Assembly (NCBI RefSeq): GCF_053078305.1
Contig: NZ_CP166879.1
Reading direction: 5' to 3' (one strand)
DNA: 64,000 bases
Within the stretch, counting starts at the first letter, position 1, and the number at the start of each line of letters is the position of its first letter. Under the pieces are notes generated by a model. That model saw nothing but the letters and a program-made list of their open reading frames with translations. It was not told the DNA's origin and did not search any database. The translations under genes and the position numbers were made by a program. Shown here one piece after another: positions 1-9,476 of this stretch.

Positions 1-665
1 TCGCGCTCTGACTTCAGCCATGCCTCAAACAATCGCCCGAACTGAACGGCAAGCCGGATTTCATTAATCAGATTACATGTGAATATAACTGTCAGAAATA
101 TCATGATAAAATAAACGAGGGAAAATAACATAAATAAAACTGTATTACCCCCCGACAGAAATGGCATGGTTGTAAATATCCCTCCCGTAAACTGAACACA
201 TAAAGAAAACACCGCAAACACTGCTATCATCCGGTAACCTTTATGCACACGACGAGTATTAACAGTAAATTTGCCATCTGAAAATATACCGACAAAAGAA
301 TATTTAAGAAAACAATGCAGTCTGTTATCCACTGAACTGACATTTCTGTCGGATATAAAACAAATCAGCTTATTACAACACCATATCGGAAGATATATCC
401 CCATCTGTTCATAACAGTATTTTATTCTTACCAGTGTATTTTTCGTTGTTGGCTCTTTTGTCAGTTTGTCAATACGGGCAAGAATGGACTCCTTTTCAGA
501 TACAGGAATTTTCTCAAATCTGTATTTCCTGATATTCGGCGCATAGCCATAATGCTGCACAAACCATTTGACAAGAGGAATAATAATGCCCGACAGAAGC
601 GGTAACACCAGATTTTTAACTATATCCTGAAATGTTTTGTCCTGAAGATAATGCATGACAGACAT
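1..665 (-). CDS. hypothetical membrane protein, partial (3' end beyond window start)
   Basis: Reverse frame is open from 665 to position 1 with no stop (checked triplet by triplet); ATG at 665-663 lies 1 nt after the tssA stop (TGAGATG). Translation begins MSVMHYLQDKTFQDIVKNLVLPLL and is hydrophobic; region is AT-rich. Absent from the ORF track because it runs off the window. Confidence 0.4.
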   Translation of the reverse strand, partial: MSVMHYLQDKTFQDIVKNLVLPLLSGIIIPLVKWFVQHYGYAPNIRKYRFEKIPVSEKESILARIDKLTKEPTTKNTLVRIKYCYEQMGIYLPIWCCNKLICFISDRNVSSVDNRLHCFLKYSFVGIFSDGKFTVNTRRVHKGYRMIAVFAVFSLCVQFTGGIFTTMPFLSGGNTVLFMLFSLVYFIMIFLTVIFTCNLINEIRLAVQFGRLFEAWLKSER

Positions 666-666
666 C

Positions 667-2265
667 TCATGAGCTCCCCGGATTGCACAACACAGCAGCT
701 CTGGCAGCATCAATGGCGATGAGCCCGGCAAGAAGATGTTCCATATCAGGCTGCAGACGCACCCTGTCACTTTCAGTTTTTGCGGACTTCATACGTAACA
801 GTTTCAGGCGGCGGGCTTTTACCTCAAATACCAGTTCAGGTTCCCATTGTGACAGGGTCAGCCGGGTTGCACGTTCATCCAGCTCCACAAGCAGATGCAG
901 GGCAAGGTCATTTTTTCCAGTCTGTTCGGCAACACGGGCCATCAACAGGCGCAGTAGCCAGTTGCTGCGGTCAGACTGAATACCGGGACGTGCCTGTAAC
1001 CAGCTTAAAGCGGCTTCTGTTCCTTCATTATCCGCAATCTGCAGGGCTTCCGGCTCAAGAGATAAAATGTCGTTATCTCCGGGAGCTGCCGTTATCGTTA
1101 CAGAAGGTTCTTCCGCCCAGCGTTCACCACACTCCATCACCTGCTGCTGTATCCAGCTCAGCGTCACGTCATCGGCAAACGGCATGCCGTCGTTAAAAGC
1201 CAGTGTCTCAAGCCCCGGCAGGCGCAGAAGCAATCCTTTCAGGTCATACTGAATAATGGCAGCATAATTTTCTTTTCCGGTCTGCAACAGCGCCTGATGA
1301 ATATACCACTGCAGGTCCAGCCACAGATGACTGGCTCCCCGGGCAAACATATCGTCACACTGTTCAAGCAGTGACAACCAGTTCTGCTGCAGATACAACC
1401 GTTTCAGTGACGCACGCCGGTCCGGCCCCGGTGGGGCAATACGGGTCCGTCCATCAGCAGATAACGGCGGTAACTGATGCAGCGTGTCATGCCGGACGCT
1501 TTTCATCAGTCGATGAGCCGCCAGCCAGCCCTCAGGCTGGTCACGCAGATATTTTGCCAGAACACGGGCCTGTGACAGCAGTTCCTGTCCGGAGGTGATG
1601 GCAGATAATGCCATGACGCTGCCGGATGTTACCGTCGGTGCCGGCGCGGCAGCCTCCTGAGGCACCACTGCATCAACACCACCGGCCTTCATCAGGCGAT
1701 TTTCAAGTGCCTGATATAACCCGTTCAGCACCGGGGCGGAAGCCTCATCCGTAAAGGTCTGTTCTGCCAGCCACAGCGCCCCGGCAATGCGCAGGGTATC
1801 CGCCTTCACCACCTCCGGATACAGAGACAGACTGTCCAGTATGCGGGCGCTGCATAACCACTCCAGCGCCGCCTTCCTGGCCCGTGACCGTTGTGGATGC
1901 AGGTGCTCTCCAAAACGCTGCAACAAACCGGTCAGCAGCTCCAGACCGTCGGCCAGACCTTTTTCACCATCCTGCCGCAGACGGGCCCAGATATACCAGG
2001 TCGCCACCCGGATATCTTTGGTTCTGGTGGTCAGTAATTTTTCTGCAAGCTGGCTGACAATTCCGGCATCGGCTCCGGAGAGTTTATTGACCTCTTCACG
2101 CATCTGCTGAAAATCATCATCGTACCCCGCATCATCACCTGCGGGATTATCTGGCGTCACGGGAGCAAGCCATTTATCCCACAGCGCAATACGCACCTGA
2201 GCCGGTTCAGCCACATCCCGGGGTGTCGTCTGGCATGCACTGAGGAGCGAATGAATGGAAGCCAT
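667..2265 (-). CDS. tssA: type VI secretion system protein TssA (ImpA N-terminal domain family)
   Basis: 532 aa ORF; N-terminal region resembles ImpA_N/TssA; ATGA start/stop overlap with tssM; sits in a T6SS cluster. Confidence 0.75.
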   Translation of the reverse strand: MASIHSLLSACQTTPRDVAEPAQVRIALWDKWLAPVTPDNPAGDDAGYDDDFQQMREEVNKLSGADAGIVSQLAEKLLTTRTKDIRVATWYIWARLRQDGEKGLADGLELLTGLLQRFGEHLHPQRSRARKAALEWLCSARILDSLSLYPEVVKADTLRIAGALWLAEQTFTDEASAPVLNGLYQALENRLMKAGGVDAVVPQEAAAPAPTVTSGSVMALSAITSGQELLSQARVLAKYLRDQPEGWLAAHRLMKSVRHDTLHQLPPLSADGRTRIAPPGPDRRASLKRLYLQQNWLSLLEQCDDMFARGASHLWLDLQWYIHQALLQTGKENYAAIIQYDLKGLLLRLPGLETLAFNDGMPFADDVTLSWIQQQVMECGERWAEEPSVTITAAPGDNDILSLEPEALQIADNEGTEAALSWLQARPGIQSDRSNWLLRLLMARVAEQTGKNDLALHLLVELDERATRLTLSQWEPELVFEVKARRLKLLRMKSAKTESDRVRLQPDMEHLLAGLIAIDAARAAVLCNPGSS

Positions 2266-5200
2266 CAGTCAGTCTCCTCCACGGAATCCCCGGCATCTTC
2301 GTCATTGCCTGTAAACGCTGACGTACCGGAGAGTTCGAAAACCATTTCCGGCAGAACAAAATTGCGGAGTTTCAGCAATACAAGCGGCCCTTCCCCCGCT
2401 TCAGTTCGCAGTGTGTAATTCAGCATACGACCGTCCTGCGCCTGCCAGCTCAGGCTCCAGCCACTGGCAACGCCCGGTGCGGCTTTCCGTCGGGCCATCT
2501 CAAGCAGACGTATCAGCCCCCAGCTTCCCGGCAGGTCTGCATACTGACGGGTACCGGCCTGAGTGCTTACCCAGCTTAAACTGGCGCCAGGTGCTTCCGT
2601 ATCAGCCGGCCAGGTAAATCGCTTCCATACCGGCATCTGATTAACATAAATCAGTTTCTGATTATCGGTTATCAGCGTCGTCTGCATCACACCGGCAGCA
2701 GTTCCCGGGCGCAGCTCAAAATGCAGCCCCGCGTTACCTGTGGTGAACGCCACATCCGCTATTTCACTCAGGGTATTGATGGCTTTCAGAAACGCAGGGT
2801 TGAATGTCAGCCCCCGGGTATTAATGGTATCCGGTACCCAGCGACTGCCTTCACTGTGCAACACACCACTCAGGTTATTCTGCAGGAAACGGGCAATACG
2901 TCCCGTGTCCGTATTCAGGTATTTTGCCAGCAGGGGAAGCGAAGCATCGCTGCTGACATTTTTAAACGGATAACGCCCGGAAAATGCATTATTCCAGCCA
3001 TCCACCACCGCAGTACGCCACCGGGCATTCAGACTTTCTGCCGCGGGCGTAAGAACCTGCTGCCACGCCTGCTCCATCGGGCGAACAAAGACCGTCTGTC
3101 CGAAGCCATACCACTCCTGTCCGAGTCCGGCAGCGGTCAGGCTACCGTAATCCCGGGTATCGGTTAAATCAACCGATTTCCCCTGCAATACTGTCTGTGC
3201 CAGCATCTGCATCATGGCCTGCGGGTCAGAAGAGCCGGCAATCTGTTGCAGACGCAGACGAACCTGTGTCACCCGGGTCAGATATGTCTGCAGATTCAGC
3301 ATATCCGCACTGTTGTTCTGATTATCCATCAGTGCAAGCACCGGCCCGAAAGTCGTCGCCAGAGGACCGTGAAGCCGGCTTTCCGGTACTGCCACTGGCT
3401 GTTTTTCCTGTGAAAGCAGGTTTCTGGCAGATTTAACCAGTGAATCAGTAACCGCTTCCCGGGGCTGGCCAGTACGCCCCTGAACCGCCAGCGTATTCAT
3501 CAGAGCAACCAGGGGGGACTGGCGCACATCAGCCATCAGCGTCAGTTGCTCTGTCACATCAGACAGCGTCTGAGCTTTACGCAGGTGCAGACTGTTCAGA
3601 AAATTCAGCCAGGCATTACCAAAATCAGCAAAATAGCGCGTTGTCAGGCGCTGTCTGAGTGCTTCCGGCGATACCGGTGACGGTGCCTTCTGCCTGCCAT
3701 CCGTCAGTACCCAGTCCATTTCTTCACGACGCTCATTAATCACGGTGTCTATCGCCGGCAATACGGCCTCTTCCCAGGCCTGGCGGGTGAACATACCGGG
3801 AACCACTTCATCCGTAAAAAAGAGGCGGGAGACATCAGTATCACCGGTCATATCCGTCAGACGCATATCCGCAAACTGATGTGCCACCCGTGCCAGCATT
3901 TTCTGATACAGCATGGCATCGCTGTTCTGTGTCCCCAGATGGCGAAGCAGCAGAGTTCTGCTCTGGCTGACCAGCTCTTCATCAGCCGTCAGCTTCCACT
4001 GAGGATGAGTAATAATCCCGGAGGCATAATACGCCAGCAACGTCGGGCCATTAGCCTGCCAGAAAACGGCACTCACACCGTCACGCTGTGGCCATTCCCG
4101 CATGAGCGTACGACTGAACCAGGCGGGCTCCATATGTTGCGGTTGCGCCAGCATCAGATACAGTCTGAGCTGGTCATATGCGGCTTTTGCCATTTTCCCC
4201 CGCTGCGGGCTGTCCGGAGGAAGACGAATAAATGTCCTGAGCTGCTGCTCAAGATGAGCAGCAGCGGCATCACGCAGTAAAAGATGTGCATTTTGTGCAT
4301 AAAGGGGCATTACGACCGCGAGCAGGTCTGCATTCTGATTCATACCGGCCCGCAGGTACCATGGCGCCCCGTGCTCCTCCCGGTACTGAAGGCGGGCCAG
4401 GGATTTCTGCAGATTCAGCAACGCCTGCAGACGTTCTGCAGGAGACAGTTGCTGGTTCTGAGCCGGACGAATCTGTTCCTGTACTTCAGCAACCAGACTC
4501 CGGTTTGCCAGAAAGGAAACCACCATTCCTGTTCCCTGAGCCATCATCAGTATGGCCGCCATAACGGCCAGACTTCTGCGCCAGTGATGACCTGTGCGGG
4601 AAGGCTGTAGCCGGACAGGTAATTGCTGCACTGTCTCCGGCAACGCCTCCCAGCGGTTATCCATTCGCCAGCGATGTCTGACACTTCGTTCACCGCCGAC
4701 AGTTGCCGGACTGAAAACAATACCCGCCAGCAACAACTGACGGTATGGACGGAGTAATACGGATAATGGCTCCACCACAGCATCAATATTTCGTCTGAAT
4801 CGCTCTGCCAGCGACAACAAAAAATAATACCGAGGGGCACAGCATATCTGCTGTATCCCCTGAGCAACAAGCCCGGGGAGCATGGCCTGTAGTTGTGCTT
4901 TCAGTTTGTCAGAACTACATTCTGCCGGCAGAAGGCATCCCACGGGCTGAGTAATACGCCCTCGCTCATCCGGACTCTCCTGCAGTGACCAGACATACAG
5001 CGGCAGACGCCAGCCAAGGCGCTCACAACATGAACTGACCGCACGGGAAACCCTGTCCAGGGCATCTTCTGTCAATGGTGCGGATAATGTTTCACTCAGT
5101 CCGGAAGTTACCCAGACAATGCCATCAACAGGCCGGTAACGCAGACGGCGTAACGCAGCCAGCCAGTCTGCGTTTTCCGGCTGCGAGGGGTCTCCTCCCC

Positions 5201-5654
5201 AGAGAAGCAATGTCCCCTGCTCTTCCTGCCAGAACTGTTCTGTCAGGCCCGGGGTCAGCAACTCAACCTCAGAGGCAGTACCTGTTATCAACAGAATGCG
5301 TATTTTACGTCCCCAGAATCTGCCATACTGGCGCCGCAGAGTATGACGAATATCCTGAACAGTAACATAGCGCGGTGGCGTCTGAGCCAGTCGCTCTTCA
5401 TCGTCAGGTAACCTTTGCTCCTTCCGGGCCCGACGTCGATATGTCAGTTCCTGAACATATTTTTTCATCACAGGCAGGTAACAGACAAAGAGCAACCCCA
5501 GACTCAGCAATATCAGCAGTAGTATTTGATCCCGGCGTGTTTCTGCCCCCAGAAATGCTCCATATCGGGTTATCAGCCACCAGAGCGCAGCCACACCAAT
5601 AAATACAATCCCCGGTCGTCCAAAGCGACCAGACAGACAGGCCAGTTTATTCAT
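2265..5654 (-). CDS. tssM: type VI secretion system membrane subunit TssM (IcmF family)
   Basis: 1129 aa ORF with N-terminal transmembrane segments and IcmF-like size and architecture; T6SS context. Confidence 0.85.
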   Translation of the reverse strand: MNKLACLSGRFGRPGIVFIGVAALWWLITRYGAFLGAETRRDQILLLILLSLGLLFVCYLPVMKKYVQELTYRRRARKEQRLPDDEERLAQTPPRYVTVQDIRHTLRRQYGRFWGRKIRILLITGTASEVELLTPGLTEQFWQEEQGTLLLWGGDPSQPENADWLAALRRLRYRPVDGIVWVTSGLSETLSAPLTEDALDRVSRAVSSCCERLGWRLPLYVWSLQESPDERGRITQPVGCLLPAECSSDKLKAQLQAMLPGLVAQGIQQICCAPRYYFLLSLAERFRRNIDAVVEPLSVLLRPYRQLLLAGIVFSPATVGGERSVRHRWRMDNRWEALPETVQQLPVRLQPSRTGHHWRRSLAVMAAILMMAQGTGMVVSFLANRSLVAEVQEQIRPAQNQQLSPAERLQALLNLQKSLARLQYREEHGAPWYLRAGMNQNADLLAVVMPLYAQNAHLLLRDAAAAHLEQQLRTFIRLPPDSPQRGKMAKAAYDQLRLYLMLAQPQHMEPAWFSRTLMREWPQRDGVSAVFWQANGPTLLAYYASGIITHPQWKLTADEELVSQSRTLLLRHLGTQNSDAMLYQKMLARVAHQFADMRLTDMTGDTDVSRLFFTDEVVPGMFTRQAWEEAVLPAIDTVINERREEMDWVLTDGRQKAPSPVSPEALRQRLTTRYFADFGNAWLNFLNSLHLRKAQTLSDVTEQLTLMADVRQSPLVALMNTLAVQGRTGQPREAVTDSLVKSARNLLSQEKQPVAVPESRLHGPLATTFGPVLALMDNQNNSADMLNLQTYLTRVTQVRLRLQQIAGSSDPQAMMQMLAQTVLQGKSVDLTDTRDYGSLTAAGLGQEWYGFGQTVFVRPMEQAWQQVLTPAAESLNARWRTAVVDGWNNAFSGRYPFKNVSSDASLPLLAKYLNTDTGRIARFLQNNLSGVLHSEGSRWVPDTINTRGLTFNPAFLKAINTLSEIADVAFTTGNAGLHFELRPGTAAGVMQTTLITDNQKLIYVNQMPVWKRFTWPADTEAPGASLSWVSTQAGTRQYADLPGSWGLIRLLEMARRKAAPGVASGWSLSWQAQDGRMLNYTLRTEAGEGPLVLLKLRNFVLPEMVFELSGTSAFTGNDEDAGDSVEETD

Positions 5655-6795
5655 TCTGGTTTCCTGATGTAACAGTACTGATAAAATGTTCTTCTCCGGA
5701 TGAGAATAAAGTCAGGAGAGAATCATTACCAAGACAGACCAGATCGGCTGCCAGAGCAGTAAGCAGCCACGGAGCAGCAGGTCCCGGGATACCGCACCAT
5801 TTTTCCAGTAACATACGTCCGGACGGTTCCCATCCGGCACCATACTGGTTTCCAATAGTCATCAGCGGTGCAGCAATCTTTTCCCAGTGATAACAGTCCC
5901 CCAGTACACGAGCGGTACGACAGGCAGCTGTCTGGGTTTCAAGGAAAAGTGTGAATTCATCATTAAACTTGTTGATATCCAGCGACATCGGGCGTAGCAG
6001 ACGGGCTGGATGCGGCAGGTTATATTTTTGCGCAACATCATCGCTGGTCAACAAAAGTGCAGCCAGTCCGTCAGAGTATGCATTCCCCCCATTTAGCTGT
6101 ATTACCAGCATCAAATCCACAGTCAGCACTGGTTGTTTCAGACGCTCATCAACCCACCCCATGGAAAAGTCGGGAGTAACCTCGATATTGTCAGGAACGA
6201 CGCGTTGGGGAAATAACGCTTCCCATGCTGAAACAAAAGCAGATCTGATTTCAGAATCAGGCTGATCGGTTATCAGCGTCACATTTACAGGGAGAGCGGC
6301 AGGTAACTGACAAAATTTATCCGTTATCTCCCTTAGCAAGACACGTAAAGAGGCTTCAACCTTATGCCCACTGTCAGAAAGATAATCTATTTTCTTTACA
6401 AGGCCGTACTGCAGAGGCAATTCATCACAAAGAGTAGCTACCGTTATTTTATCAGGCAAATAAACACAACTGGCAGTAATAACAAGATACCTTTCGGCCC
6501 AGGATTCCCACTGTTTCTGAGCATACTCCCCCTCTTTTTTAAGAAACAAATGTTCATCCATCTGGTTGCTCCACTGCCAGTGTCGCAGGCAAAACAGGAA
6601 AAACCAGCACCCCGAAGGAGTCAATGCAAGCCACCAGATACTGAAATCATTTAATACTTTCACATATCCTGATGCCCGGATAATAAACAACAGAGTACCA
6701 ACAACAGCCATAAATGCCCCTGTCATAAACCACAACATCATTGATGGTTTATGAGGTAATTCTGTTGATAAAGATTTTGTTCTGCTCCATCCCAT
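5647..6795 (-). CDS. T6SS-associated membrane protein, function unknown
   Basis: 382 aa ORF with two N-terminal hydrophobic helices; ATG start confirmed; 3 nt downstream of the PAAR stop and overlapping the tssM start. No family recognised. Confidence 0.55.
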   Translation of the reverse strand: MGWSRTKSLSTELPHKPSMMLWFMTGAFMAVVGTLLFIIRASGYVKVLNDFSIWWLALTPSGCWFFLFCLRHWQWSNQMDEHLFLKKEGEYAQKQWESWAERYLVITASCVYLPDKITVATLCDELPLQYGLVKKIDYLSDSGHKVEASLRVLLREITDKFCQLPAALPVNVTLITDQPDSEIRSAFVSAWEALFPQRVVPDNIEVTPDFSMGWVDERLKQPVLTVDLMLVIQLNGGNAYSDGLAALLLTSDDVAQKYNLPHPARLLRPMSLDINKFNDEFTLFLETQTAACRTARVLGDCYHWEKIAAPLMTIGNQYGAGWEPSGRMLLEKWCGIPGPAAPWLLTALAADLVCLGNDSLLTLFSSGEEHFISTVTSGNQNE

Positions 6796-6798
6796 GGT

Positions 6799-7065
6799 TT
6801 ATCCTATTGCACATTCCGGTGCACTGGATATAACCTTACACCCACACAGACATTTACATCCATCAATCACAACAGCTCTTCCATCAGATATCCATTCAGG
6901 AGAGCCCTCCACAATAGGATTGGTACCATGTCCGGAAACAGGGCAACTAACCATATCTCCAACAAGAGCTACTTTTTTACCATCGACAATCATGGTTGAA
7001 GATGCCGAAATAACTTTACCACCATGTGTGGTATTATCACCAAGCAATACAAAACCTTTAGACAT
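6799..7065 (-). CDS. PAAR domain protein (T6SS spike tip)
   Basis: 88 aa, Gly/Cys-rich with PAAR-like repeats (VISASSTMIVDGKKVALVGDMVSCPVSGHG...GCKCLCGCKV); located downstream of vgrG/effector. Confidence 0.8.
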   Translation of the reverse strand: MSKGFVLLGDNTTHGGKVISASSTMIVDGKKVALVGDMVSCPVSGHGTNPIVEGSPEWISDGRAVVIDGCKCLCGCKVISSAPECAIG

Positions 7066-7096
7066 AAAACTCTCAAAAATAAATTTTCACTTTGAG

Positions 7097-7774
7097 TCAC
7101 CAGTTACCGTAAGGATAAGTTTTATCTTTGATAAATTCCTTAATATCTTCATCATATCCATATGTGAAATCACTTTTAGTAACCCCCTTACACATATTCA
7201 TTTTATCACCCGATACTGTAGTAATTTTAGCATCCAACTGAGGTACCACCGGATTACCGCGATCTCCCAGCCAGACTCTTACCTTCCCTTCAGGTGCCAG
7301 ACCAATAATCATCGTTGAACGATAATAGGTTTCGTTCCAGCGGTTGTCTGTGTAAGGCGTAACCATCTGCTCCCAGGTTCCTTTTTTAAAAAAAATCAGA
7401 GTTTCATAACTCTTTTTATCAATTATCGAATCCCAGCAAAAACGCAACATCAGAGGTAATGCTTTCCCCTTGTTATAATACGACTCAGTCGCGCCCAGAT
7501 GCTCATTCCAGCGCCCTACACTGACCTGACTCGGTCTTGTGGTATCAAGATACTGATAAGTCGTCTTATAACCTTCCCCGTCCACCATCAATGCCTGAGT
7601 GGCCAGCGCAGGCAGAGCCTTTGGATAAATAAAGAGAAATTTCCATTCATCATAGGGTAATTTTTTATAACCCCATTCAGTCTTATCCGAATCAGCATAC
7701 TGTGAGCTAACAGAATTACACCCAGTTAACAATGCCAATAATGGTGCGATAAAAATGATTTTATCTCTGGTCAT
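7097..7774 (-). CDS. tli1: lipoprotein, putative Tli1-type immunity protein for the adjacent lipase effector
   Basis: 225 aa; signal peptide with lipobox LLTGC; immediately downstream of the DUF2235 effector, the usual effector-immunity order. Confidence 0.55.
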   Translation of the reverse strand: MTRDKIIFIAPLLALLTGCNSVSSQYADSDKTEWGYKKLPYDEWKFLFIYPKALPALATQALMVDGEGYKTTYQYLDTTRPSQVSVGRWNEHLGATESYYNKGKALPLMLRFCWDSIIDKKSYETLIFFKKGTWEQMVTPYTDNRWNETYYRSTMIIGLAPEGKVRVWLGDRGNPVVPQLDAKITTVSGDKMNMCKGVTKSDFTYGYDEDIKEFIKDKTYPYGNW

Positions 7775-7793
7775 GTATTGTCATCCTGTAGCG

Positions 7794-9476
7794 TTAAACA
7801 CCAGACATCATAACTTTAGTATTTTTTACTGCGTTATCATTCAATCGCTGCTGATCATCCATGTACCATACAGAACGAATCCAGCGATCATTTGGTTTAT
7901 TCGGAAAAACGAACGCCTTATTACCTTTAGGACCAAAGCGATGGATAAAAATCTCTCCCGTTGTAGGATCCACCCATAAATTACCATCAGACTCAATATT
8001 CCAGTTGGCAGAACAATGGGTGTATTTTCCGATAATATACAACTCTTCCTCAGTAAAAGCCTGAGGCTCTTGCCCCAAACGTACCGCTTTTCCCTGAGCA
8101 ATGGCTTTATCAACAAAAGGAATTAATTCAGGAGATAAATTCATATCTGGATTTTTGGGGTCAATTGGAGCAAACAATACCCCTGCTTCCTGAGCAGCAT
8201 CCAGCATCACACGCAGGCAAACATTAGCCCAGTCATTAGGTACTGCCATACGCTCAAAAAATACTGCGGCTCCCACCTGCTTTTGTATCACGCCAGCCCG
8301 ACGTTGATTGCTGTTGTTCACACCTACGGAACGAATTTTGGTGGTTAGTTTTCCATGAGGCAAAATATGTTTTAAGGCTGGCAGAGTCATCAACATTTTT
8401 CTGGCTTGCTCTGCATTACGGTATACTCGCGTATCTGTTTCTCTGGTATCGTCACTGACAATTTCAAATGCCGGGCAACTCAGAAACAGACTTTCATTTT
8501 CCTGCAGAGGTGAACCTACCGGATTGTAACCACCTCCAATATCTGAATGCGCCCCTGGTAAAGCCAGTTCGGGCCACATACCTTTAATACTGTTCAGGCT
8601 GAAATTATATCGGTATTCATTCATTGCAGTAATCTGGAAAACTTTCTTCGCGATGGAAGGACGCAATTCCAGCTTTACTCCCGGGTTGCTACGTCCATTA
8701 ATATCGAAGAAATTACTGATTCCACCAATAGCTGCGACAGTATCAAAAAGCCCCAGAAAACGGACTTCACCCGAAGGTTTACCATCATAAAAATCGCCTC
8801 TGAGCCCTTTAGCAATAGCTCTGGCTATAGCAGGATCCTGTTCCATAACCCGATTAGCAAAGTGCCTTGCCGCCGCTGCTCCCCGGCTAAAACCAAAAAC
8901 ATCAAACTGGATTTTTGCGATACAAAAATCAGGATTTAAATTGAACCCCATAAATTCTGATAACGCTTGGGTGATTCGTTCCATTGCCTCGTCGGTTTTC
9001 GTCACCACACCTTCAAATATATCCAGAATACTGGTGCCTAATCCCATGCCAATGACTGAATCTGCTTCACCAGCCGCAGTCCCTATCCCGGAAATGTAAG
9101 TCTGAATTTGTGCTTCAACCTGACTTTCCAACAAAGTCTGATCTGCTACGTAAAGTGAATTTAGCCAGTGGATATTGGAATAATATCCACGATAACTGCC
9201 ATTCGAGATACTGTTCTTGTTAATTTCTTCAAGAAAGTCCTCACAGCTTTGTGCATCTTTTTGATTTACCCCCTGTCTGGCTGCACTACACTCATTAAAT
9301 TTCATCAGACGAGATGCTGTATTCTCCCGATTGTTTCCGGTACCATCGAAAAATATACCAATGGTTAAAGTCACACCCCGCGCCGGTTTTTTCTTTGCAA
9401 CAACAACTTTCCAGTCATTATGAATACTGGTTTTATGGGTGGCATCTGTTACATCATATCCCTGATATTTTGTCAT
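7794..9476 (-). CDS. tle1: T6SS phospholipase effector, Tle1 family (DUF2235 alpha/beta hydrolase)
   Basis: 560 aa; GxSxG motif GFSRG; directly downstream of vgrG with ATGA overlap; matches the vgrG-tle1-tli1 layout described for EAEC sci-1. Confidence 0.7.
   Translation of the reverse strand: MTKYQGYDVTDATHKTSIHNDWKVVVAKKKPARGVTLTIGIFFDGTGNNRENTASRLMKFNECSAARQGVNQKDAQSCEDFLEEINKNSISNGSYRGYYSNIHWLNSLYVADQTLLESQVEAQIQTYISGIGTAAGEADSVIGMGLGTSILDIFEGVVTKTDEAMERITQALSEFMGFNLNPDFCIAKIQFDVFGFSRGAAAARHFANRVMEQDPAIARAIAKGLRGDFYDGKPSGEVRFLGLFDTVAAIGGISNFFDINGRSNPGVKLELRPSIAKKVFQITAMNEYRYNFSLNSIKGMWPELALPGAHSDIGGGYNPVGSPLQENESLFLSCPAFEIVSDDTRETDTRVYRNAEQARKMLMTLPALKHILPHGKLTTKIRSVGVNNSNQRRAGVIQKQVGAAVFFERMAVPNDWANVCLRVMLDAAQEAGVLFAPIDPKNPDMNLSPELIPFVDKAIAQGKAVRLGQEPQAFTEEELYIIGKYTHCSANWNIESDGNLWVDPTTGEIFIHRFGPKGNKAFVFPNKPNDRWIRSVWYMDDQQRLNDNAVKNTKVMMSGV

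Follow-up and report, generated by a model that had tools for sequence, protein, structure and literature searches.

The first 665 bp of the DNA analyzed here (a 64,000-nucleotide stretch of contig NZ_CP166879.1, assembly GCF_053078305.1, hereafter the window) contain most of a minus-strand gene, 665 to 1, to which we gave the working name X. X is a non-core gene in a type VI secretion system (T6SS) operon of the Sci-1 type, packed between tssA and tssF. It behaves as an optional, fast-diversifying cassette, whose ancient mosaic alleles have been swapped by recombination within a nearly clonal operon. From its sequence and population behavior, we infer, with a probability of roughly 40%, that X may encode a dispensable, diversifying, immunity-type cargo protein of the inner membrane.

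Gene X in the Sci-1 operon

A preliminary description of this DNA had reported a markedly AT-rich reverse frame that is open over the whole first 665 bp, starts 1 nt past the tssA stop, encodes a hydrophobic product and runs off the window, and each of these features was borne out. The frame comprises 221 translated codons without any stop, and the remaining five frames over the same interval have 7–19 stops each. At the base composition of X, 221 codons would be open by chance with a probability of 1.8e-7, and the frame was open throughout in 0 of 20,000 shuffled sequences. The TGA of tssA occupies positions 669–667, so that a single base (666) separates it from the ATG of X. A Shine-Dalgarno-like GGGGAG motif upstream of the ATG suggests that translation of X may be coupled to that of tssA. 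The GC content of X is 37.4%, with 38% at third codon positions (GC3), compared with 56.2% in tssA, 55.2% in tssM and 53.6% in the downstream tssF. The effector gene tle1 and the immunity gene tli1 are comparable to X (41–43%), whereas the core genes range from 52% to 58%. The grand average of hydropathy of the product is +0.33, and Kyte-Doolittle analysis identified three membrane segments.

Window positions 1–1200 were matched in 65 of 5,426 complete Escherichia coli genomes. The top matches were 04-00955 and VG38-53E1 (99.3%), followed by the enteroaggregative E. coli (EAEC) strains 042 and 55989 (98.1%). In these best-matching genomes, X is a 693-bp coding sequence for 230 amino acids, labeled in RefSeq as "hypothetical protein" or "type VI secretion protein." Because near-identical genomes (98–99%) carry this 693-bp gene, the window is short of only nine X codons (ESPEQLALF) and the stop. 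The operon order in these genomes is tssM-tssA-X-tssF-tssG-tssJ-tssE, and tssF starts 7 nt past the X stop. The genes which the preliminary description had expected after tssA are therefore not displaced and follow X directly. Otherwise, the part of the cluster inside the window comprises the standard Sci-1 genes, namely vgrG, tle1, tli1, a PAAR gene, a gene for a 382-aa protein, tssM and tssA.

Since TssA of EAEC is Ec042_4540 (PMC6232143) and TssF is EC042_4542 (PMC4604203), X corresponds by position to EC042_4541 (EC042_RS24255, WP_000115357.1) of E. coli 042. The proteins are 95–99% identical, and both EC042_4541 and WP_044706302.1 of strain 04-00955 represent the same gene with the same neighbors, with no material difference from X apart from the window edge. 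Among the papers in the library searched, none mentions the EC042_4541 tag or the protein accessions. The preliminary description considered X distinct from TssE, TssF, TssG and TssJ. This proved correct for both the partial and the full-length product, neither of which matched GPW_gp25, T6SS_TssF, T6SS_TssG or T6SS-SciN; the real genes lie downstream. A Pfam search with the partial product at E ≤ 0.01 returned nothing, and the full product gave only chance-level matches at E ≤ 10. It is thus firmly supported that X is a real gene for a non-core membrane protein within the operon.

Promoter-like and terminator-like sites in the AT-rich X stretch showed no excess over shuffled sequence. Because of this and of the short gaps on both sides (1 and 7 nt), X is presumably co-produced with the T6SS machine. 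The internal promoter already known in sci1, P4532, is named after EC042_4532, which precedes the X counterpart by nine locus tags (PMC13262931).

Mosaic alleles and deletion of X

Comparison of E. coli strains revealed a sharp peak of divergence inside X. Between 04-00955 and STEC719, tssA and tssF are 96–100% identical, whereas X codons ~127–187 are only 56–57% identical, with zero indels; identity returns to 100% over the last 25 X codons. Synonymous divergence (dS) is 0.37 for the whole gene and 0.71 for the region of its membrane hairpin, with ratios of nonsynonymous to synonymous divergence (dN/dS) of 0.67 and 0.75, respectively. The corresponding values are 0.063 and 0.13 for tssA, and 0.038 and 0.12 for tssF, so that dS of X in E. 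coli is 6–10 times that of the flanking genes. Because dS lies so far above that of the flanks, the X alleles are much older than their surroundings. This age implies that alleles were imported or were held by long-term balancing selection, and that fast drift alone is not the explanation. The alleles are also mosaic. The first membrane helix occurs in two types (a and b) and the center/hairpin region in two types, and all four combinations were found.

Among the 65 E. coli genomes with X DNA, 41 carry it at full length, at least two of these with a 1-nt frameshift. An internal deletion of 568 bp is present in 24 (~37%), leaving only the last ~134 nt of the gene. In two deletion strains studied in full, all core genes, the PAAR gene and the 382-aa gene are intact, and one of them also has intact tle1 and tli1. 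These data firmly support the view that the host can do without X, and that diversifying or balancing selection, together with recombination, acts on the gene.

Frequent loss might also be expected of a decaying gene, or of an AT-rich stretch whose protein is unimportant, such as a spacer bound by H-NS or bearing a promoter that modulates tssFGJE. The ORF (open reading frame) is lost in ~40% of E. coli carriers, dN/dS is high (0.6–0.75), and the last ~125 bp are always kept, with conservation equal to that of the flanks. However, the frame remains open and constant in length across dS of ~0.4–0.7 in stop-prone AT-rich sequence, the three-helix-plus-domain architecture is kept at 17–20% identity, and AlphaFold2 predicted a confident fold from the family alignment. 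In addition, promoter- and terminator-like sites being no more frequent than in shuffled sequence speaks against a regulatory spacer. We regard this explanation as very improbable.

The X family and the slot upstream of tssF

When 1.8 billion representative proteins were searched exhaustively with HMMER, 28 matches were obtained. The full-length ones are 200–275 aa long and have the same layout as X; there were also a few fragments and one eukaryotic repeat false positive. Where the source was named, it belonged to Enterobacterales (Escherichia, Salmonella, Klebsiella, Citrobacter, Kluyvera, Cedecea, Enterobacter, Serratia, Raoultella, Pantoea and Yersinia). When the family profile was used for a further, k-mer-based protein search, only three more relatives and no fusions to other domains emerged, and a scan of GTDB representative genomes detected the family in Cedecea neteri only. 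The ORF and its architecture are maintained down to 17–20% identity. It is firmly supported that X belongs to a small family which is confined, as far as seen, to Enterobacterales. No significant match to X was found among Pfam, NCBIfam, PADLOC and PHROG families. The Tli1/DUF2931 and DUF1240 Pfam families did not match X either, whereas tli1 of the window matches DUF2931. X was already present in databases as a hypothetical protein; what is new here is that the family is defined, that its slot is recognized as fixed, and that its behavior in populations is described as hypervariable, mosaic and marked by frequent deletion.

A member of the family lies directly upstream of tssF in seven T6SS clusters. 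The order is tssM-tssA-X-tssF in E. coli Sci-1, Cedecea neteri, Enterobacter ludwigii and Salmonella serovar Concord, and tssM-X-tssF, with no tssA between, in three distant clusters (L025, L027 and L029) whose X proteins are ~20% identical. TssF identity among the seven clusters ranges from ~50% to 94%. In all but one junction the frames overlap or nearly abut: X overlaps tssM by 4 and 1 nt and tssF by 8–13 nt, and elsewhere the gaps are 0–11 nt. A block consisting of PAAR, a ~385-aa protein and tssM is common to all seven clusters. Across genera, X is 28–38% identical, TssA ~60% and TssF 76–94%. The extreme pair is Cedecea and Salmonella Concord, in which TssF is 94%, TssM 85% and X 38% identical. 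GC3 of X is 36–46% in all six T6SS-linked loci compared, whereas that of the flanking core genes is 51–74%.

This distribution bears on the suggestion in the preliminary description that X is an inserted cargo gene. The cargo part of that suggestion agrees with the finding that, in E. coli operons otherwise 96–100% identical, X can be present, deleted or frameshifted depending on the strain, whereas a recent or random insertion is contradicted by the same position ahead of tssF across clusters. Taken literally, the suggestion would make X a recently inserted foreign gene unrelated to type VI secretion, in line with a GC content 18 points under its neighbors, the presence of X DNA in only 65 of 5,426 complete E. 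coli genomes, and relatives in islands unconnected to T6SS. However, the slot is filled in four genera and in three distant clusters without foreign intergenic DNA, repeats or mobility genes, and the low prevalence mirrors the rarity of the whole Sci-1 cluster rather than of X alone. We also searched for a mobile pool of X on plasmids and phages, and found no copies except a deletion remnant in a Sci-1-like cluster on a Citrobacter IncF plasmid. The conserved position largely refutes recent insertion, which we consider the least probable of the explanations discussed here.

Stand-alone relatives of X, away from T6SS genes, were found in Salmonella, Klebsiella, Serratia, Raoultella and Yersinia. 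One of them, located in a fimbrial/regulator island, is more than 90% identical across Salmonella, Klebsiella, Citrobacter and Kluyvera. The island module (positions 5000–8741 in loci L006 and L007) contains fimbrial genes, a CaiF/GrlA-like regulator, a 280–286-aa protein and a 152-aa ParB-like protein, with the X relative at its end. Its flanks vary, with arsenic resistance genes in one locus and restriction and GmrSD defense genes in the other, and this differing cargo suggests that the island is mobile. The Serratia and Raoultella copies lie among housekeeping genes, the Yersinia copy lies in an integrase/HicB/helicase island, and one other genome has its copy in an island rich in integrase or insertion sequence genes. 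As judged by analogy, the stand-alone copies resemble the pattern seen for orphan immunity genes.

The slot itself differs in related clusters that lack X. In a sister cluster of E. coli GMM060 (~69% DNA identity) it is empty, with 33 nt between tssA and tssF. In a T6SS-1 of the extraintestinal pathogenic E. coli type (strain 22KM0354), the slot holds a gene for a 418-aa PAAR protein followed by one for a 153-aa DUF1240 membrane protein with three helices (locus L005, 3176–4878). The C-terminus of this PAAR protein is hydrophobic and rich in Gly, Ala and Val, and in sequence it looks like a membrane-inserting toxin. The two genes are likely an effector/immunity pair. In Pantoea ananatis T6SS-2, the tssA-tssF interval is reported to be a variable region with genes for PAAR proteins (PMC3942780).

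Predicted topology and possible function of X

The coordinates of X and its parts are given in table 1. Like the rest of its family, X has an N-terminal membrane helix, a domain of ~100 residues with the motif LYE.xGxxxP, a two-helix membrane hairpin and a C-terminal amphipathic helix with the pattern F..F..W, formed in X by F209, F213 and W216. The best-conserved positions of the domain in a 24-sequence alignment are F50, I65, Y85, E86, G89, P93, F119 and L120. AlphaFold2 modeled the domain as four helices with a beta-hairpin; next in the model comes a long helical hairpin. With 24 family members, the predicted local distance difference score (pLDDT) was 83 and the predicted template modeling score 0.69; with E. 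coli sequences alone the model was poor (pLDDT 57). Searches of the model against PDB and BFVD with Foldseek gave no match at E ≤ 0.001, and a profile search of PDB sequences with the X family gave none either.

Table 1. Positions of X, its parts and adjacent features in the window
Feature	Position	Strand	Basis
X, codons 1–221 of 230	1..665	-	Open frame; 98–99% DNA match to E. coli 042 and 04-00955, which have an annotated 693-bp coding sequence
X start codon, ATG	663..665	-	Read from sequence
Shine-Dalgarno-like GGGGAG	674..679	-	Within the tssA 3' end, 8 nt upstream of the X ATG; read from sequence
tssA, 532 aa, ImpA_N and T6SS_VasJ domains, directly upstream in the same operon	667..2265	-	Pfam; RefSeq annotation of matching genomes
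X membrane helix 1, residues ~19–37	555..611	-	Kyte-Doolittle hydropathy; allele alignment
X predicted cytoplasmic helical domain, residues ~38–145	231..554	-	Family alignment; AlphaFold2 model; positive-inside charge counts
X membrane helices 2 and 3, residues ~146–166 and 175–200, with periplasmic loop of ~8 residues	66..230	-	Hydropathy; model
X hypervariable core, codons ~127–187	105..287	-	Sliding-window identity; regional dS and dN
Segment absent from the X deletion allele	91..658	-	L002/L004 alignment; census; annotated remnants; ends are CAGA microhomologies

Basic residues are unevenly distributed across the family, with means of 6.1 after helix 1, 3.8 before helix 2 and 3.5 after helix 3, and low values in the N-terminal tail (0.8) and the loop between helices 2 and 3 (0.9). 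This clustering predicts an N-terminus on the outside, with both the domain and the C-terminus in the cytoplasm. X is thus predicted to cross the inner membrane three times, with only ~11 and ~8 residues exposed to the periplasm. A cleavable signal peptide, with a "GYA" site after helix 1, was considered and ruled out by the strongly basic segment that follows in the whole family.

The interpretation of X as an immunity-type protein is based on its composition, its polymorphism, its frequent loss, its stand-alone relatives, and the toxin/immunity cargo in the same slot elsewhere. Strain polymorphism, variation in presence and absence, and orphan copies at other locations are traits of the immunity class, and X has all three. 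Because almost nothing of X is periplasmic, it could counter only membrane-inserting or cytoplasmic toxins. Its site of action might be the inner membrane itself, where it could, for instance, bind helices that a pore-forming toxin from a rival bacterium has inserted. The variable hairpin of helices 2 and 3 (and helix 1) would then set the specificity, and the conserved cytoplasmic domain would serve as a scaffold.

Several observations weigh against this interpretation. No toxin gene was found beside a member of the family in any of 14 distinct genomic contexts, so X is not encoded next to a cognate effector, and our confidence is held at the level given above because the toxin is absent from all of them. 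Tle1, the effector of the cluster itself, is already paired with a separate immunity protein, Tli1. X-deleted strains keep their effector genes intact, which argues that X does not give immunity to the known effector of its own cluster. The X allele is also uncoupled from the vgrG-linked effector module, since type-1 X occurs with Tle1 and, in cluster B of STEC313, with another module. No likeness to known immunity families was found in sequence or fold, and the conserved cytoplasmic domain of ~100 residues is superfluous for a simple intramembrane immunity protein. Finally, a role tied to the machine would account at least equally well for the fixed position ahead of tssF, with overlapping frames, in clusters that share only ~50% TssF identity.

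Two candidate partners of X within the cluster were examined and rejected. In six strains, the center type of X had seemed to follow the effector linked to vgrG, with type 1 accompanying Tle1 and type 2 another lipase, and this association was broken by the degraded second cluster of STEC313, in which an intact type-1 X occurs together with a third effector module. The 382-aa protein was considered as a hidden toxin partner in E. coli. It is 98.4–98.9% identical in every strain compared, whatever the X allele, and therefore does not co-vary with X; it is also intact in the two deletion strains.

The main alternative casts X as an accessory ("Tag") protein of the T6SS that is lineage-specific. 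In this view, it would be a small subunit or regulator in the inner membrane, its cytoplasmic domain would touch the membrane complex, the baseplate or TssA, and it would help or tune assembly in a non-essential way. The linkage to core genes across seven divergent clusters (TssF ~50–94%), in three of which X directly follows tssM, is what such a protein would show, as are the frames overlapping or nearly abutting tssM and tssF. The same PAAR/~385-aa protein/tssM block accompanies X everywhere in these clusters, and the cytoplasmic domain and the C-terminal helix are the most conserved parts of X. On the other hand, an accessory protein of this kind should be kept wherever the machine is kept and should evolve at a machine-like rate. 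Of the 65 E. coli carriers, 24 have lost X by deletion, with all core genes intact in the two deletion strains examined, and X evolves far faster than the machine parts (38% identity where TssF is 94%, and dS 6–10 times that of the flanks). Moreover, tssA abuts tssF without X in sister clusters, relatives exist far from T6SS genes, and the persistent AT-richness of X is unlike that of core genes. We therefore consider an accessory role somewhat unlikely, even as the strongest competitor of the immunity interpretation.

It is also conceivable, although improbable, that X is a membrane-acting anti-phage or abortive-infection protein, or part of another conflict system, which hitch-hikes in T6SS operons and defense islands. 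Diversifying selection and frequent loss are typical of defense genes, and the Klebsiella relative adjoins Mrr, type I restriction-modification and GmrSD genes, with the Yersinia relative in the island described above. Defense-type genes also occur past tssJ in two distant clusters (a KAP NTPase and QatB in L027, an Mrr-like nuclease in L025). However, the PADLOC and PHROG searches gave no match, X lies in the middle of a structural operon in T6SS clusters and not at an island edge, the Serratia and Raoultella copies have housekeeping neighbors, and no conserved partner gene was found beside X.

Comparison with known systems places X best among T6SS-associated cargo or accessory genes, and it is not surprising in kind. 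The DUF1240 protein of 22KM0354 occupies the same slot in a related operon, is likewise small, has three predicted membrane helices, and holds the position expected of an immunity gene. Unlike X, it stands beside a candidate toxin and lacks the soluble domain of ~100 residues; the two have no detectable sequence similarity. Tli1, the DUF2931 lipoprotein and proven immunity protein of the same cluster (window 7097–7774), is also encoded by a low-GC cargo gene in the operon. However, Tli1 is periplasmic and encoded beside the toxin Tle1, whereas X is an integral membrane protein 7 kb from tle1. Immunity proteins of pore-forming colicins are inner-membrane proteins with three or four passes, which neutralize the toxin within the bilayer. 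They resemble X in being small and multi-pass, with little periplasmic exposure and with strain polymorphism concentrated in the membrane helices. X differs from them in having an extra conserved cytoplasmic domain and no adjacent toxin gene, and it shows no sequence or fold match to them.

Non-core genes within T6SS operons also include tagF (~230 aa), which often sits directly after tssM, and tagA (ImpA_N and VasL domains). X resembles them in this respect, and in three distant clusters it likewise follows tssM. However, X did not match the Pfam families of the accessory proteins TagF, TagA/VasL and TagL (DUF2094-type TagF, ImpA_N, VasL and OmpA) even at E ≤ 10, and a TagA-like gene is present separately, downstream of tssE, in related clusters.

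A further, rather doubtful proposal is that the EC042_4541 family constitutes a previously unrecognized class of T6SS-linked inner-membrane proteins under balancing selection. Such a class might be a new family of immunity proteins, with the toxin gene located elsewhere or in rival strains, or a variable "identity" subunit coupled to the PAAR/~385-aa membrane protein/TssM block, which would alter how or against whom a Sci-1-type machine fires. Sci-1 of EAEC is among the main model T6SSs, yet X lies in the middle of its operon without a described role. In the cluster comparisons made, X and the vgrG-adjacent effector/immunity module are the two strongly divergent spots, and the combination of old recombining alleles with frequent deletion is the signature of a gene in inter-strain conflict. 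Identification of a partner of X may bring to light an immunity family not recognized before, perhaps together with a new toxin, or instead an optional membrane subunit; if X is merely another orphan immunity gene, the result would be an ordinary one. The X alleles and the deletion could also serve as typing markers for Sci-1.

Several other features of the cluster were noted. The gene for the 382-aa protein (window 5647–6795, minus strand) lies between PAAR and tssM and overlaps the tssM start by 8 nt. The protein has one broad hydrophobic segment near the N-terminus (its relatives have two) and no Pfam or NCBIfam match. A counterpart of the same size and position was present in every related cluster examined, with identities of 98.4–98.9% within E. 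coli, 37–39% across genera and 18–24% to more distant clusters. The counterpart in the sister cluster is labeled in RefSeq as "KPHS_23130 family T6SS system protein." The window has a single tli1 (7097–7774) after tle1 (7794–9476), as does STEC2018-553; two tandem tli1 copies are found in E. coli 042, 04-00955, RM14721 and 1105.

E. coli STEC313 (NZ_CP041433.1; loci L034 and L035) contains two Sci-1-type clusters ~250 kb apart. The intact one carries a lipase effector and a type-2 X. In the degraded one, tssC, hcp, clpV, vgrG and tssA are truncated or frameshifted and tssM is not annotated; it retains PAAR, X, tssF, tssG, tssJ, tssE, a gene for a 743-aa protein and two FGE-family genes. The TagA-like gene (ImpA_N, VasL) past tssE is broken up, in the RefSeq annotation of many E. 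coli Sci-1 clusters, into several incomplete pieces (518–832 in L001, 3401–4765 in L002 and equivalents), just outside the left edge of the window. Cedecea, Enterobacter and Salmonella Concord each have it as one intact gene of ~460 aa.

Window positions 22000–46000 match 04-00955 at 99.9% and include microcin genes (mchF, and a HlyD-family exporter). In STEC719, mcmA and mchF lie just upstream of tssB. The presence of microcin genes near the T6SS indicates that the cluster adjoins a second locus for bacterial competition.

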